Shown here: positions 6,475-48,412 of the stretch, in pieces
How the letters are laid out: each line of letters begins with the position of its first letter
How positions within the stretch are numbered: position 1 is the stretch's first letter
Source: an uncultured Actinomycetota bacterium
GTDB lineage: Bacteria > Actinomycetota > Actinomycetes > JACCUZ01
Assembly: GCA_963839955.1 (NCBI GenBank)
Contig: CAWIXB010000001.1
Location: 1,154,826 to 1,218,825 of the forward strand
Direction: 5' to 3'
DNA length: 64,000 nucleotides
The notes under the pieces: generated by a model
Databases searched by the model: none
Seen by the model: only the letters and a program-made list of their open reading frames with translations
What the model was told of the DNA's origin: nothing
Made by a program: the position numbers and the translations under genes

Positions 6475-7968
6475 ATGACGAACACTCTTGAGGCCGACAG
6501 CGCAATCCCTGACCTCGTTGCCGACCGCCCCGTTGCCGAAGGGCCTCCCGTCGACACGGCGGTTGCCCACACCCTGTCGGTGGCCGAGCTCGAGGACCAG
6601 CTCTGCACGTTGTACGGACAGCTTGCGGCGGGTGAGGCCGAGTTCCTCAGGCTGCTCGCGGAGTTCGACGAACGCGAGGGCTGGGGTGGCTGGGGCGTTC
6701 GCTCGTGCGCGCACTGGCTGTCCTTGCGGTGCGGCATGCGTCTCGGTGCTGCCCGGGAACGCGTGCGAGTGGCCAAGGCGCTGACCAGGCTCCCGTTGGT
6801 CCGGTCCACGTTCGCCGCGGGTCAGCTGTCCTACTGCAAGGTCCGCGCGCTGACCCGGGTGGCGACGACGGCGACGGAGGCCGATCTCGTCGAGGTCGCT
6901 CGTGGCGCGACCGGCGCCCAGCTCGAACGCATCGTGCGCACCTGGGCGGCCTTGCTGACACCGGAGATGTCCGCCTCTCGGAACCTTCGCCGAAGTTGCA
7001 CGCGCCGTGAGCAACCTGACGGGTCGGTCATCTTCACCGTTCGCCTCGCTCCCGAGGACGCCGCGGTGCTCGACTCTGCCATCGCCGCCGCCCGCGCGGT
7101 CACCGACGACGAGCAGGGACAGCCTCGCGAGACTCCGGAAGAGAAGCAGCTCGCCGCCGAGCTCACCGTCGAACCGCCCTTTGTCCGCGCCACGGCTGAT
7201 GCGGTCGTCCTGCTCGCCGAGAGCTTCCTGACCCCCTCCGCCGTCGCTGGCGACGCCGCCGGCGCCGAGCCCCGGATCGTGGTGCACGCCGACGCCGACT
7301 GGCTCCTTGCCGACCCAGACGTGACCGCGGACCCAGCTGCCCCAACGACCCCGCCGTTCCCCGTTGCTGCCCCGCCGACCGTGGAACTCCAAGCCAGGGC
7401 ACTGCCGACGCAGCGAGCGCACGTCGACGGTGGTCCGCCGTTGTCGCGTGCCGTCGTGCTGCGCCTGCTCTGCGAGGCTTCCGTCGCGGTGATGACGCAC
7501 GCCGCGGACGGGCAACCGCTCGATCTCGGCCGCACCCGCCGCAACGCCAGCGCGAAGCAGCGAGCAGCCCTGCACGCACGCGACGGAACTTGCCGATTCC
7601 CCGGCTGCACCCAGCGACACCGACTCATCCCGCACCACGTCCGGTGGTGGTCGATGGGCGGACCCACCGACCTCGACAATCTCGTCCTGCTCTGCCGGGC
7701 CCATCACCGAGCCGTGCACGACGTGGGCTACACCATCGCCAGTCGCGGCCGTGGCGACTTCGTGTTCTTCCGGCCCGACGGTCGCCCCCTTCCGCCGCCC
7801 GGTCCGTCCCGACCGTCCTCGCACGACGTCGCCCGCCCCGGCCTGACCCAGGGATGGGACACCGCCGAGCCCATCACCGCCGACACCATCTCCCCGACCT
7901 GGGGTGGTGAACGACTCGACCTACGCATGCTCGTCGACGGCCTGGCGCAGCAATACCTGGCGGCGTAA
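6475..7968 (+). CDS. DUF222 domain protein with C-terminal HNH endonuclease motif (REP13E12-family-like, mobile-element associated)
   Basis: The N-terminal region matches DUF222 (AELEDQLCTLYGQLAAGEAEFLRLLAEFDEREGW...SCAHWLS). The C-terminus has CRFPGC...HHVRWWSMGGPTDLDNLVLLCRAHHRAVH (HNH). It interrupts the otherwise conserved ispG-GNAT / proS neighbourhood. Confidence 0.85.
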   Translation: MTNTLEADSAIPDLVADRPVAEGPPVDTAVAHTLSVAELEDQLCTLYGQLAAGEAEFLRLLAEFDEREGWGGWGVRSCAHWLSLRCGMRLGAARERVRVAKALTRLPLVRSTFAAGQLSYCKVRALTRVATTATEADLVEVARGATGAQLERIVRTWAALLTPEMSASRNLRRSCTRREQPDGSVIFTVRLAPEDAAVLDSAIAAARAVTDDEQGQPRETPEEKQLAAELTVEPPFVRATADAVVLLAESFLTPSAVAGDAAGAEPRIVVHADADWLLADPDVTADPAAPTTPPFPVAAPPTVELQARALPTQRAHVDGGPPLSRAVVLRLLCEASVAVMTHAADGQPLDLGRTRRNASAKQRAALHARDGTCRFPGCTQRHRLIPHHVRWWSMGGPTDLDNLVLLCRAHHRAVHDVGYTIASRGRGDFVFFRPDGRPLPPPGPSRPSSHDVARPGLTQGWDTAEPITADTISPTWGGERLDLRMLVDGLAQQYLAA

Positions 7969-13705: not shown

Positions 13706-16513
13706 GTGGCAAAGGTCCGGGTCTACGAGCTCGCAAAGGAGCTCGGGGTAGAGAGCAAGGTCGTCATGACCAAGCTCAATGAACTGGGCGAGTTCGTCAG
13801 GTCGGCATCGTCGACCGTCGAGCCGCCCGTCGTACGCAAGCTGAGGGAGGCCCTCCCCGCCGCCGGTGACGGTGCCGCGGCCAAGGCCCCCGCCAAGAAG
13901 TCCGCCGCCAAGAAGGCGGCAGCCAAGCCCGCCGCCGCCGCGCCCGCCCCGGCGCCCGCGCCGGCGCCCCCGCCCGTCGCCGAGCCGATTGCCGACGCGC
14001 CCGCGGCGACGCAGCCCCCGGCTCCCACCCCGGCCCCCGCGGCACCGGCCGCGCCGGCCGAGCCCGCCGCACCGGCCACGCCGGCCGAGCCGGCTCGCCC
14101 CGCGGCACAGGCCCCCTCACCCGAGGCCCCCGAGCGCCCCGCGGCCGCGCCCGGTCCCCGACCCGGCGCGCGCCCCGGCGGCCCGCGGCCGGGCAACAAC
14201 CCGTTCAGCTCGGGCAGCAGCTCGGGCATGGGCCGTCCGACCGCACCGCGGCCGGGCAACAACCCGTACTCCACCGGCGGCACCTCCGGCATGCCACGAC
14301 CGGGCGGCTCCCGCCCGGGCGGTCCCAGCGCCGGCGGCCCGCCGCGTCCCGGCGGCGCCCGGCCGAATCCCGGCATGATGCCCCAGCGCCCGGCGCCCGG
14401 CGTCGGTGACGGCGGGTCCGGCCCCGGTGGCCGCGGCGCTCCGGCCGGTCGCGGCGGTGGCCGACCCGGTCCCGGCGGACGTGGTGGCGGTCCCGGTGGG
14501 GGTGGCGGCGGCGGGTTCGCCGGCGCTCCCGGCGGCGGTCGTCCCGGCGGCGGCGGTTTCGGCGGTCGCGGCGGCGGTCCGCGTCGCGGTGGTACGGCGG
14601 GCGCCTTCGGGCGTCCCGGCGGCCCGCCCCGTCGTGGGCGGAAGTCGAAGAAGCAGCGGCGCCAGGAGTTCGACAACATGGCGGCGCCGTCGATCGGCGG
14701 CGTGCAGGTTCCGCGCGGGGACGGTTCCACGGTCGTCCGGCTCGCGCGCGGCTCCTCGCTGACCGACTTCGCGGACAAGATCGACGCCAACGCGGCCTCG
14801 CTGGTCACGGTGCTGTTCCACCTCGGTGAGATGGCCACCGCCACCCAGTCGCTCGACGAGGAGACGTTCGGCCTGCTCGGTGCCGAGCTCGGCTACGACG
14901 TGCAGATCGTCAGCCCCGAGGACGAGGACCGCGAGATCCTGGAGTCGTTCGACATCGACTTCGACCTCGACGACGCCGGCGACGACGCCCTCGTCGCCCG
15001 TCCGCCGGTTGTGACGGTCATGGGTCACGTCGACCACGGAAAGACCCGCCTGCTCGATGCCATCCGCAAGACCGACGTGATCTCCGGCGAGGCCGGTGGC
15101 ATCACGCAGGCCATCGGCGCCTATCAGGTCCACACCCTGCACGAGGGTGCGGAGCGCGCGATCACCTTCATCGACACCCCGGGTCACGAGGCGTTCACCG
15201 CCATGCGTGCCCGTGGCGCCAAGGTGACCGACATCGCCGTGCTCGTGGTGGCCGCCGACGACGGCGTCATGCCCCAGACGATCGAGGCGCTCAACCACGC
15301 GCAGGCGGCCGACGTGCCGATCGTGGTGGCCGTCAACAAGATCGACGTCGAGGGTGCGAACCCGGCAAAGATCCGCCAGCAGCTCACCGAGTACAACCTG
15401 GTGGCCGAGGAGTACGGCGGCGAGACCATCTTCGTCGACGTCTCCGCGCGGCAGAGCAAGAACATCGAGGCCCTGCTCGAGTCGATCCTGCTGACGGCTG
15501 ACGCGGCACTCGACCTGCGGGCGATCAAGGACGCCTCCGCGCGTGGTGTGGCCATCGAGGCCCACCTCGACCGTGGTCGCGGTCCGGTCGCCACCGTCCT
15601 GGTTCAGCGCGGCACGCTGAACGTCGGTGACTCGATCGTCGCCGGCGACGCCTACGGCCGCGTTCGCGCACTCCTCGACGAGCACGGCGAGACGGTTGGC
15701 TCGGCCGGGCCGTCCCGGCCGGTGCAGGTGCTCGGCTTCACCTCCGTCCCCGACGCCGGTGACAAGTTCCTCGTCGCAGCAGAGGACCGCATCGCGCGCC
15801 AGATCGCCGAGAAGCGCCAGGCGATGGAGCGCAACGCGGCGCTGGCGAAGGCCCGCAAGCGGGTCTCGCTCGAGGACTGGCTGGAGAAGAGCAAGGTCGA
15901 CACGCTCAACCTGATCCTCAAGGGCGACGGGTCCGGCTCGGTCGAGGCGCTGGAGGACGCCCTGCTCGCCATCGATGTCGGCGAGGAGGTCGACCTGCGC
16001 ATCATCGACCGCGGCGTCGGCGCCATCACGCAGAACGACGTCAACCTGGCGGTCGCCTCCGAGGCGGTCATCATCGGGTTCAACGTCCGTCCGGCCGAGC
16101 GCGTCACCGAGCTGATCGACCGCGAGGGCGTCGACGTGCGCTACTACTCGGTCATCTACCAGGCGATCGACGAGGTCGAGGCCGCGCTCAAGGGCATGCT
16201 CAAGCCCGAGTACGAGGAGGCCCAGCTCGGCACGGCAGAGGTCCGCGAAGTCTTCCGCTCGTCCAAGTTCGGCAACATCGCCGGGTGCCTCGTGCGCACC
16301 GGCGAGATCCGGCGCAACTCCAAGGCCCGCTTGGTCCGCGACGGCGCGGTGGTGGCCGAGAGCCTGGCCATCGAGTCGCTGCGCCGCTTCAAGGACGATG
16401 CGACCGAGGTGCGTGAGGGCTTCGAGTGCGGAATCGGCCTGGGGTCGTTCAACGACATCAAGGTCGACGACGTCATCGAGACCTTCGAGCTCCGCGAGAA
16501 GGCCCGCACCTAG
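13706..16513 (+). CDS. infB: Translation initiation factor IF-2
   Basis: [15 protein letters not shown]-terminus, a long Pro/Ala/Gly-rich linker, the G-domain [17 protein letters not shown]...DTPGHEAF...NKID, and C-terminal domains. Confidence 0.97.
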
Positions 16514-44146: not shown

Positions 44147-44896
44147 GTGTCCATAGGTCAGGCGCTCGCCGAGGCTCGTGAGAGCCGCGGTCTCTCGGTC
44201 CTGGACGTCGCCTCGGCGACCCGGATCAGGCGGACGCTGATCGACGCGATCGAGGCCGACGACTTCGCCGCCTGCGGGGGCGACTTCTACGCTCGCGGCC
44301 ACATCCGCAGCATTGCCAGCGTCGTGGGGATCGACCCGGCACCGTTGCTGGCCGAGTTCGACATGTGGCAGGCCGCGCCGGCGCCCAGGCCGACCGAGGC
44401 CGTCTTCGAACCCGCGACGTCCCCGCGTTTCGACCGCCGGGGCCCCAACTGGAGCGCGGCCATGGCCGCTGCGCTCGTGGTCGTCCTCGTCTACGGCGCC
44501 GCCCAGGCGATCAACAGCCTCACCGACAACGAAGGGTCCCCGTCCGCCGACTCGTCGCCGAGCGCCTCGGCGCCCGCGCAGTCGGCGAAGCCGAGCACGC
44601 CGGCGCCCTCGCCCACCGCGGTCGCACAGGCCCCCCGCAACAAGGTGACCGTGGTGCTGCGCGCGCGCGACCTCAGCTGGGTACAGGCCACGACCGCCAG
44701 CGGCAAGGAGCTTTTCCAAGGGCTCGTCCAGAAGGGCGAGCGCAAGACGTTCACCGACAAGCAGCGGGTGCGGCTGGTTGTCGGCGACGCGGGCGCGGTG
44801 GTGCTGACCGTCAACGGGACCCCGGTAGGTTCGCCGGGGCGTAGTGGCCAGGTGGCCAGGGTGCAGTTCACCCGGCAGGATCCGACGGGCGGCTGA
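44147..44896 (+). CDS. Helix-turn-helix (XRE-like) domain protein with TM segment and C-terminal DUF4115 (RodZ-like)
   Basis: N-terminal HTH (IGQALAEARESRGLSVLDVASATRI), a single TM (MAAALVVVLVYG), an S/P/A-rich linker and a DUF4115-like C-terminus. Confidence 0.75.
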   Translation: MSIGQALAEARESRGLSVLDVASATRIRRTLIDAIEADDFAACGGDFYARGHIRSIASVVGIDPAPLLAEFDMWQAAPAPRPTEAVFEPATSPRFDRRGPNWSAAMAAALVVVLVYGAAQAINSLTDNEGSPSADSSPSASAPAQSAKPSTPAPSPTAVAQAPRNKVTVVLRARDLSWVQATTASGKELFQGLVQKGERKTFTDKQRVRLVVGDAGAVVLTVNGTPVGSPGRSGQVARVQFTRQDPTGG

Positions 44897-44970
44897 CCGG
44901 CGGCTGACTGGCGGTATCGCAGGTGAGTGCGCGCCCGATGCCACCATCCGCCACGCACCACCTCGCTGCC

Positions 44971-45254
44971 GCAAGATCGCAGCCGGGCCCCACAAGAGCA
45001 ACTGCCTTGGGGTGAGGGCAACGGTTCTGAGCGGGCGACCCGGTGGACCGGTCAGGCTTTGTGGGGCCGGGTTGCGATCACCAGGACTACCGCACGGTGG
45101 CGGGGGTGGCTACGCCGGCCGGTCTCGGCGCCTGCTCCGCCTCGCGGGGAGGATCGACTGACGACAGACCGCAGTCGCGAGTTGCGGAGCTGCGGACCGT
45201 TCATCGCACCGCTCCTCCGCAGCCCGACGGCTTGTGGGGCCGGGTTGCGATCTT
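44971..45254. repeat. Three copies of an approximately 24-bp motif (cttgtggggcc[c]gg[g/c]ttgcgatctt) in noncoding DNA: one inverted (44971-44996) and two direct (45057-45079, 45231-45254)
   Basis: Copies B and C are identical over 21 nt. The reverse complement of copy A matches 22/24. A and B form an inverted pair 60 bp apart. The surrounding 510-bp region has low GC3 in all frames (noncoding). Confidence 0.85.
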
Positions 45255-45409
45255 CGGTCTTGGTGGAGGGGCGACCGTCGCCCCGGAAGCATGTTTGGGC
45301 CGTACAGGGGGCCAAGAAGTACGACGCAACGCCGATTCGGGCGGCTCCAGCGTCTGCCGGGCGCCATTGCGTCGTCTTTTCCGCACCACCCGCCAATTAG
45401 GCTGACGAC

Positions 45410-46828
45410 ATGCCGCCCTCCGAGCCTCCGGGCCGTCGCGTCGCCCTGGTGACCCTGGGCTGCGCGCGCAACGAGGTCGACTCCGAGGAACTTGCCGGGC
45501 GGCTGGCCGCTGACGGGTGGCAGCTCGTCGACGACGCGGACGAGGCGGACATCGCCGTCGTGAACACCTGCGGGTTCGTCGACGCCGCGAAGAAGGACTC
45601 GATCGACACCGTGCTGGTCGCCGCCGACGCGAAGGGCGGGGGACGCACGAAGGCTGTGGTCGCGGTGGGCTGCCTCGCCGAGCGCTACGGCGAGCAGCTG
45701 GCTGCGGAGCTGCCGGAAGCCGACGCGGTGCTCGGCTTCGACGACTACGCCGACATCTCGGCCCGTCTTCAGTCGGTGCTCGCCGGCGACCACCATGTGC
45801 CGCACGTGCCGAATGACCGGCGTGCCCTGCTGCCGTTGGCACCTCTCGAGCGGCAGCCGACGATCGACCCGCTGCCCGAGGGCGTGGCGCCCGCGTCCGG
45901 GCCGCGACCGATGCGCATGCGCCTCGGCGACGGGCCCGTGGCGCCACTCAAACTCGCGTCGGGCTGCGACCGACGCTGCTCGTTCTGCGCCATCCCCTCC
46001 TTCCGCGGCGCCTTCGTGTCGCGCCGGCCCTCCGACGTGCTGACCGAGGCCCGGTGGCTCGCGGAGCACGGAGCCCGCGAGCTCGTCCTGGTCAGCGAGA
46101 ATTCCACGTCGTACGGCAAAGACCTCGGCGACCTCCGCCTGCTCGAGACGCTGCTGCCCGAGATCGCCGCGGTCGAGGGTGTGGACCGGGTGCGGGTGAG
46201 CTATCTCCAGCCGGCCGAGATGCGACCCGGGCTGGTCGAGGTGATGACGGGGACGCCAGGAGTCGCGCCGTACTTCGACCTCTCGTTCCAGCACGCCAGC
46301 GGCCCGGTGCTGCGGCGTATGCGCCGCTTCGGTGACGGCGCCCGCTTCCTCGACCTGGTCGCGCAGATCAGGGCGGGTGACCCGCTCGCCGGCATCCGCT
46401 CGAACGTCATCGTCGGGTTTCCCGGCGAGACCGAGGCCGACGTCGCCGAGCTCGAGTCCTTCCTCGAGGGTGCCCGGCTCGACGCGATCGGCGTCTTCGG
46501 CTACTCCGACGAGGACGGCACCGAGGCAGCGTCCCTCGACGGCAAGCACGACGCCGCCGAGGTGCGGGCCCGGACCGAGCAGGTGACCCGGCTCGCCGAC
46601 GAGCTCGTCGCGCAGCGGGCCGAGGACCGGGTGGGGGAGGTCCTCGACGTGCTGGTCGAGACGGGCGACGGCCCCGACGGTCCGGCCGAGGGGCGGGCGG
46701 CCCACCAGGCGCCCGAGGTCGACGGCAGTACGACGCTGCGCGGCGCGGTGCCAGGTGTCGGGCACCTGGTGCGCGCCCGGGTGTCCACGAGCGACGGCGC
46801 CGACCTGGTCGCCGAGGTGCTCGGGTGA
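45410..46828 (+). CDS. rimO: Ribosomal protein S12 methylthiotransferase (radical SAM, MiaB family)
   Basis: N-terminal MTTase Cys triad ([11 protein letters not shown]...NTCGF), radical-SAM CxxxCxxC ([12 protein letters not shown]), and a C-terminal TRAM domain. Confidence 0.9.
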
Positions 46829-47481: not shown

Positions 47482-47999
47482 CCGGCGACGCACCCGCCCG
47501 CCTGGCCGAGACGATCCACCGGTTGTTGCGCGACGAGGGCGCCACGGTCTCGGTCGCCGAGTCGCTCACCGGCGGCCTCCTTGGTGCTGCGCTCACCGAC
47601 CCGGCCGGGGCGTCTGCCACCTTCCGGGGCGGTGTGCTCGCCTACGCGAGCGACCTCAAGGTCGCGCTGCTCGGTGTGGATCCGGTGCTGCTGGAGCGTC
47701 ACGGGGCAGTCCATCCGGAGGTGGCGCTGGCGATGGCCGCCGGCGTGCGCGAGCGGCTTGCCACGACGTACGGGCTGGCGACCACCGGCGTGGCCGGGCC
47801 GGACCCGCAGGACGGGCAACCGCCGGGCACCGTCTTCGTCGCGGTCGCCGGACCCCGCGACCTCGCGGTCGTTGCCGCTCACCGGTTCGACGGCCTGGAC
47901 CGCGCAGCGGTGCGTGCGGCGAGCGTGGCGGCGGCGCTCGACCTGCTGGGCGCGGCCCTGGCCGACCGGGCCGCGGAGAACCGGAACACCGGGGTTTGA
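47478..47999 (+). CDS. CinA-family C-terminal domain protein (nicotinamide-nucleotide amidohydrolase PncC-like)
   Basis: The [24 protein letters not shown] motif is typical of the CinA C-terminal domain. pgsA-cinA-clgR synteny as in mycobacteria. Confidence 0.85.
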
Positions 48000-48024
48000 T
48001 TACAGCGTTACACTCGTACCCACA

Positions 48025-48042
48025 TGCGGCGCGTCTGCCGCA
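48025..48042. promoter_or_regulatory. Perfect 6-6-6 palindrome tgcggc-gcgtct-gccgca upstream of clgR (candidate operator)
   Basis: Seen directly, about 70 bp upstream of the clgR start. ClgR-family regulators are autoregulatory and bind GC-rich palindromes in other actinobacteria. Confidence 0.3.
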
Positions 48043-48112
48043 GCCACCGTCGGTGGGCTGGAGTAGGTTGGGCGCACCACGAGGGCGGACGCCGGAGAGG
48101 GAGGAGAGCGTC

Positions 48113-48412
48113 ATGATCCTGATCCGACGACTGCTGGGCGCCGTGCTCCGCGAGCACCGCCAGGCGCAGGGCCGCACGCTGCGCGAGGTCTCCTCCGCGG
48201 CGCGCGTCTCGCTCGGCTACCTCTCCGAGGTGGAGCGCGGCCAGAAGGAAGCGTCCTCCGAGCTGCTCAGCTCGATCTGCGTGGCCCTCGACCTCCCGCT
48301 CTCCGAGGTCATGCGCGACGTGAGTGACCAGCTCGCCGAGGCCGAGGGCCTCGCGGTGATGAGCCCCGCGGCGCCGGTCGGCCCGATGCACGTCACCAAC
48401 GTCGCCGCCTGA
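48113..48412 (+). CDS. clgR: XRE-family HTH transcriptional regulator ClgR (Clp gene regulator)
   Basis: [47 protein letters not shown] matches ClgR closely. Strong RBS GAGGGAGGAGAG. Conserved position after pgsA/cinA. Confidence 0.88.

Follow-up and report, generated by a model that had tools for sequence, protein, structure and literature searches.

Bacterial MITEs include the Correia elements of Neisseria, RUP of Streptococcus pneumoniae, ERIC/IRU of the enterobacteria and the Tn3-derived TIMEs. Each REP unit is an imperfect palindrome in its own right, and a genome contains hundreds of copies. Leaderless mRNAs are common in Mycobacterium tuberculosis (PMC3898074), in which a TANNNT hexamer is centred 7-12 bp 5' of 73% of primary transcription starts (Cortes et al. 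2013, PMC3898074). Here we describe a repeat-bearing spacer that can be set beside each of these systems. It lies between a rodZ-like gene and rimO in the 64-kb stretch of actinobacterial DNA analysed here (hereafter, the window) and carries three copies of a 24-nt unit, one of them inverted. We tentatively suggest, with less than even confidence, that this spacer is the relic of a small inverted-repeat (MITE-like) insertion, and that the rodZ-like transcript would now end in this DNA as a 3' tail rich in hairpins. The features discussed are listed in the table.

Table. Features of the rodZ-like/rimO junction and its surroundings (positions in the window)
Feature	Position	Strand	Description	Basis
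RodZ-like protein gene	44147-44896	+	249 aa; HTH_25 + RodZ_C	Pfam (5e-21, 2e-21)
rodZ-like/rimO spacer	44897-45409		513 nt, non-coding; derived insertion relative to most relatives
Motif copy A (inverted)	44973-44996	-	19/21 identical to the B/C core and 22/24 to C; TTGTGGGGCCGGGTTGCGATC with 2 mismatches at 44975-44995
A:B hairpin domain	44975-45079	+	~23-bp interrupted stem around two small hairpins	folding
Motif copy B	45058-45081	+	21-nt core 45059-45079, exactly TTGTGGGGCCGGGTTGCGATC, identical to C
Local hairpin between B and C	45178-45226	+	18-nt arms, 78% complementary	inverted repeat, minimum-free-energy folds
Motif copy C	45231-45254	+	21-nt core 45232-45252, exactly TTGTGGGGCCGGGTTGCGATC, identical to B
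Terminator-like hairpin	45321-45382	+	14-nt arms 45321-45334 / 45362-45375, then CUUUUCC
TAGGCT, -10-like hexamer	45398-45403	+	putative leaderless rimO promoter	6 nt 5' of ATG
rimO	45410-46828	+	472 aa; UPF0004 + Radical_SAM + TRAM_2	Pfam
ClgR-like HTH_31 protein gene	47996-48412

The genes around the spacer (ftsK, rodZ-like, rimO, pgsA, an HTH gene, fpg, RNase J and thyA) are housekeeping genes and are syntenic in relatives, with ftsK upstream of the RodZ-like gene, an arrangement also found in the relatives, and pgsA downstream of rimO. The RodZ-like gene has a GC3 of ~0.91. The homologues of the window RimO carry this name in their sources and its N-terminus aligns with those of the relatives. 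No transposase or recombinase gene was found within ~8 kb of the spacer, and the GC content of the inserted DNA is that of the genome. Among the window genes scanned, the sole mobile-element-like gene (6475-7968, +) encodes a 497-aa DUF222 + HNH endonuclease of the REP13E12-type family of actinobacteria. A 22-nt match of 91% between 45268-45289 in the spacer and 7767-7788 was attributed to chance, since the latter segment sits inside this DUF222/HNH gene. The window contains neither tRNA nor tmRNA genes, and the idea that the spacer might mark a tRNA/att site was dropped because of the absence of tRNAs. Elsewhere in the window, an Actino-pnp RNA (Rfam RF01688; 55.9 bits, above the gathering score) was identified at 24286-24350 (+), directly 5' of a gene for a 741-aa protein (24395-26620) that is presumably pnp, as expected for an actinobacterium.

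The three motif copies are real and non-random: 100 dinucleotide-preserving shuffles of the 64-kb window yielded no match to the 21-mer TTGTGGGGCCGGGTTGCGATC at up to three mismatches. The 24-mer of copy C is CTTGTGGGGCCGGGTTGCGATCTT, from which A differs at two positions and B at three. When one gap is allowed, A and C match over 28 nt, CCG(C)AAGATCGCARCCSGGCCCCACAAG (26/28, with 234 nt between the arms), so that copy C plus its flank is complementary to copy A over 26-28 nt, and no inverted repeat in the window ranks above the A/C pair. The unit itself is neither palindromic nor self-complementary. A search for further degenerate copies, at up to 10 mismatches in 24 nt, found none above chance level. 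The arrangement described in an earlier sequence-only reading of this DNA, an inverted pair and a direct copy of a ~24-bp motif, was thus confirmed, with trivial corrections to its spacings: the loop between A and B is 63 nt rather than 60, and the distance from the start of B to that of C is 173 nt rather than 174. Past the 24-28-nt unit, the flanks of A, B and C share no similarity, and no extended duplication was found. The identity of B and C over 21 nt between unrelated flanks gives them the look of an element's end, and not that of a duplicated segment.

For comparison, we fetched 11 orthologous loci (L017-L021 and L024-L029), giving 12 loci with the window. The closest RimO proteins are only ~80% identical to that of the window, indicating that the window lineage is isolated. 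In eight of the 11 relatives, rimO is separated from the rodZ-like gene (or from ftsK) by 21, 21, 33, 40, 49, 53, 58 and ~61 nt, which bears out the earlier remark that a 0.5-kb spacer is unusual before rimO. The remaining three junctions are each different. The junction of L018 (1933-4000) contains three unrelated genes, one encoding a protein with an endolysin-like C-terminus (PHROG, E = 6e-9), that of L019 (3084-4000) contains a methyltransferase gene on the opposite strand, and that of L020 consists of a 393-nt non-coding spacer; the insertions in L018 and L019 are without flanking repeat arrays. In two further relatives, the RodZ-like gene itself varies: in L024 (2344-2960), it seems to be truncated or broken, with only a 91-aa RodZ_C fragment called, and in L026 (333-3000), it is absent and ftsK lies directly 5' of rimO. 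The alignment with the intergenic regions of relatives, proposed as a check in the sequence-only reading, gave a negative answer: the window spacer resembles none of the 11. The contrast between 513 nt here and 21-61 nt in most relatives indicates that the spacer is a derived, lineage-specific insertion, and the best explanation of these lengths would be the insertion of ~490 bp of non-coding DNA at a junction that was ancestrally 20-60 bp long. The comparison also indicates that the rodZ-like/rimO junction is an insertion hot spot, hit repeatedly by differing insertions.

One element of the junction is shared by all the loci. In 12 of 12 loci, including those with 21-nt spacers, 6 or 7 nt lie between the end of a TANNNT hexamer and the start codon of rimO, which is conserved. 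The hexamer reads TAGGCT in the window (as it does in L024 and L025) and TAGACT, TAGTCT, TACGCT or TATCCT elsewhere, and the sequence around it is not conserved. In L028, the called rimO start seems to lie 21 nt too far upstream. The hexamer of the window is the sole TANNNT on either strand of the spacer. Its position in all 12 loci suggests that rimO has its own promoter and that, in this clade, it is probably made as a leaderless mRNA, with transcription starting at 45410 in the window. By the same search, the spacer is without an obvious housekeeping promoter from which an independent sRNA could be made.

The motif was sought in other sequences, with uniformly negative results. There is no further copy in the 64-kb window at up to three mismatches. 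A scan of GTDB (one genome per species, a collection that does not include the source genome) returned 16 one-off matches, all of which were judged to be due to chance, since their flanks are unlike the window and none comes from the source organism. Twelve of the 16 fall within DNA encoding a conserved PurK motif, NEIAPRPHNSGH, and the other four lie in unrelated contexts. The PurK matches (L001, L004-L010, L012-L014 and L016) come from archaea and several bacterial phyla and have one mismatch to the 21-mer; one reading frame of the motif copies in the window gives I-A-T/A-R/G-P-H-K. We consider this resemblance a coincidence, because the similarity stops at the edges of the 21-mer. Two chance matches were found in the JGI metagenomes, both in membrane-protein genes, and none in IMG/VR. 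No match was obtained when the whole spacer was compared by blastn with plasmid and phage collections.

The reading that we favour is a DNA-level origin for the repeats, because B and C, two copies of a discrete 24-28-nt unit, are identical over 21 nt in flanks that have nothing in common, and because the junction is a hot spot in relatives. One or two small, non-autonomous inverted-repeat insertions would have left the three copies, A and B (or A and C) being the terminal inverted repeats and the third copy a solo end. As rimO keeps its own promoter, the inserted DNA, if transcribed at all, would form the 3' tail of the rodZ-like mRNA. In that tail, a very stable A:B hairpin would form, and the terminator-like hairpin, which lies immediately 5' of the rimO -10 hexamer, would end the transcript just before the rimO promoter. 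The effect would be passive, an uncoupling of rodZ-like transcription from rimO, whereas in the relatives with short spacers, rodZ-like transcription must presumably read through into rimO. The terminator call is itself weak and merely suggestive, because such sites are not enriched in the region (four found, versus 3.1 expected from shuffles). The inserted DNA probably has no dedicated function; at most, it would give the rodZ-like transcript a terminator and a 3' tail rich in hairpins.

The earlier interpretation was supported only in part, and its suggestion of MITE remnants was not confirmed. Inverted repeats such as those that bound a MITE, around a short (<~500 bp) non-coding element, are present (A and B, 19/21 identical, with 63 nt between them), and the small size also fits; a target-site duplication, other copies in the window and a nearby recombinase do not appear. 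No duplication abuts either the A-B or the A-C segment, and a grid search over possible boundaries gave only offset matches of 4-5 nt, of the kind expected by chance. A 7-bp sequence, GGCTGAC, does flank the whole insertion, and was rejected as a target-site duplication since both of its copies are ancestral features also found in relatives with short spacers: they correspond to the conserved GGC-TGA end of the upstream gene and to the TAGGCT -10 hexamer. No cognate IS ends matching the motif were found in the window at up to three mismatches. It is because neither the copy number in the window and the collections searched nor target-site duplication supports mobility that we favour the MITE-like reading only tentatively.

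It is also possible, although in our view unlikely, that the plus strand of the spacer gives rise to a structured RNA restricted to this lineage, either an sRNA derived from the 3' UTR or a cis-acting element of the rodZ-like 3' UTR, with A:B as its core and C as an alternative partner for A. The folding results speak for such an RNA. The segment 44955-45100 folds at -76.6 kcal/mol on the plus strand (z = -4.26, with none of 200 shuffles as stable) and at -63.7 kcal/mol on the minus strand (z = -1.19), and one of the two differences between A and B is a G-U pair on the plus strand only. As separate duplexes, A:C can be more extensive than A:B (-68.4 versus -48.8 kcal/mol), and the terminator-like hairpin would provide a 3' end. 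However, the minimum-free-energy fold of the whole region favours A:B by ~11 kcal/mol, known switches use much shorter helices than the 21-28 nt seen here, and there is no TANNNT promoter within the spacer on either strand. The sequence is missing from every relative, so that neither conservation nor covariation supports such an RNA. A search of Rfam 15, of the kind that the sequence-only reading had proposed, identified no family in the spacer at gathering thresholds, and Actino-pnp was the only family found in the whole window. The best spacer match at permissive thresholds was to the SAH family (45160-45223, -), with 21.9 bits against a gathering score of 37; it coincides with the local hairpin between B and C. 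It was judged to be a chance match, since it lies on the opposite strand to rimO, is below the threshold, lacks the 3' pseudoknot consensus and has no gene downstream.

An origin without any mobile element is improbable to a similar degree. The repeats could have arisen locally in unconstrained DNA by template switching at quasi-palindromes, slippage or gene conversion, and would then have no function. The presence of the motif nowhere else in the collections searched and the absence of a target-site duplication are both consistent with this explanation, and a further sign of such processes is found at the left edge of the spacer, where two tandem copies of an 11-nt unit, CGGCGGCTGAC CGGCGGCTGAC (44886-44908, +), lie across the stop codon of the RodZ-like gene, suggesting that slippage took place locally. 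A partial third copy, TGGCGG, follows at 44908-44913. Against a local origin, a segment of 21-24 nt has been copied twice, once inverted and once direct, between unrelated flanks, which would require two independent events, and the source of the ~490 bp of extra DNA is left unexplained. Tandem repetition is also seen elsewhere in the window, with two copies of a 63-nt unit (75% identical) at 14183-14308, within a gene encoding 935 aa (13706-16513).

The units might instead be binding sites for a regulator or a site-specific recombinase, such that the A/B or A/C segment could be inverted and the B/C segment deleted. Three near-identical units of 21-24 bp in both orientations are what such sites might look like, and HTH proteins are encoded on each side of the spacer (the RodZ-like and the ClgR-like HTH_31 protein). 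We nevertheless consider this explanation distinctly doubtful, as the units lie ~150-440 bp 5' of the putative rimO start, beyond the ordinary range of operators, and are not palindromic. An inverton was rejected on two grounds: the segment that would be inverted carries no TANNNT promoter on either strand, and the neighbouring genes are syntenic housekeeping genes with no recombinase or transposase among them.

A long regulatory 5' leader of rimO, acting as a riboswitch or attenuator, was among the candidates of the sequence-only reading, which had named a long structured 5' UTR or attenuator; it is not supported, given the position of the TANNNT hexamer. The terminator-like hairpin does lie ~30 nt 5' of the rimO ATG, and the weak SAH-riboswitch-like match might seem apt for a gene encoding a radical-SAM enzyme. 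However, this match is on the wrong strand and far below the gathering score, as described above. Transcription from a hexamer 6-7 nt from the ATG in all 12 loci would leave the spacer outside the rimO mRNA, the spacer offers no second TANNNT from which a longer transcript could start, and the relatives have no leader at all. On these grounds, a role of the spacer as the rimO 5' UTR or as an attenuator is very unlikely.

In agreement with the earlier reading, the spacer does not code for protein, and no pseudogene can be recognised in it. Codon-position GC is flat across 44897-45409 (0.62-0.78), whereas the neighbouring genes contrast values of 0.9+ with values of 0.4-0.5. That reading had also described all six frames as having low GC3 and many stops; the lack of a coding signal stands, but the abundance of stops does not, as one plus-strand frame is open for 157 codons (44927-45400), which is unremarkable because the DNA is 70% GC. 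A conserved small protein, the outcome that would have told against it, was sought in two ways: no six-frame fragment of the spacer matched Pfam, even at E<=1, and the concatenated six-frame translation (fragments of at least 30 aa) had no match at E<=10 among 5.8 billion proteins. A protein-coding gene in the spacer, whether decayed or unrecognised, is extremely improbable, since the only points in favour of such a gene are the open frame and the occurrence of genes at the same junction in L018 and L019, and against them stand the missing codon-position contrast, the empty searches in every frame and the finding, by tblastn, that the proteins of the genes inserted in L018 and L019 have no similarity to the window spacer.

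The 393-nt spacer of L020 (L020:3608-4000; GCA_050742955.1, JBOGDY010000004.1) is, in its entirety, one near-perfect palindrome, built on a 40-nt period from GATCATGCGCAAGTGGT, which occurs three times in direct and three times in inverted orientation; the spacer folds at -245.5 kcal/mol (z = -8). This unit has no match in IMG/VR and no other copy in the 9.4-kb locus. Kinship between the L020 unit and that of the window was rejected, the alignment score being at chance level. The presence of two different arrays at one junction may be a coincidence at a permissive site. A bolder idea, to which we give little credence, is that the junction is a recurrent landing site of undescribed palindromic repeat-array elements, which would have reached the window lineage and L020 independently, or else that B and C compete for A in an RNA switch in the rodZ-like 3' UTR that sets read-through into rimO.

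This analysis removes a candidate riboswitch or attenuator of rimO from consideration; in this clade, rimO seems to be transcribed without a leader, from a promoter that all 12 loci share. The spacer itself is an insertion restricted to a single lineage and matters little on present evidence: it is an orphan feature for which no family of RNAs, proteins or repeats gave a match, probably a relic of an ordinary kind. If many copies were present in the source genome, they would constitute a new family of actinobacterial MITEs, of value for annotation and for typing strains. If the arrays of the L020 and window types were related, a site-specific mechanism placing palindromic arrays between rodZ-like genes and rimO would be implied.

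With respect to the actinobacterial leaderless promoters (PMC3898074), the likeness is that the TANNNT hexamer of rimO would start transcription at the A of the ATG in 12 of 12 loci; this comparison, made here from sequence, applies to the promoter of rimO, which borders on the feature described here, and not to the repeat element itself. The window repeats are like REP/BIME sequences in being short and GC-rich, in occurring in both orientations 3' of a gene and in possibly forming a hairpin at an mRNA end. However, membership of this class was rejected, since the 24-nt unit is not self-complementary or palindromic and is confined to one locus within the 64 kb. The L020 array shares its setting with the window spacer: both are non-coding, a few hundred nucleotides long and bordered by the RodZ-like gene on one side and by the -10 hexamer of rimO on the other, and the L020 array likewise contains a ~20-nt unit in both orientations that would form a large hairpin. 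It differs in having three plus three copies at a strict 40-nt period, as opposed to one plus two copies at irregular spacings, in being palindromic over the whole spacer and in the unrelated sequence of its unit. The window element departs from the MITEs in its lack of a target-site duplication, of a cognate IS in the window and of a second copy in the collections searched, in its host-like GC content and in its third, solo repeat copy 173 bp away. In its architecture, it nevertheless resembles them: it is small (~110 or 320 bp), non-coding, intergenic and bounded by inverted repeats of 21-28 bp, it lies between genes on the same strand at a junction whose content varies among relatives, and it would form a stable hairpin if transcribed.
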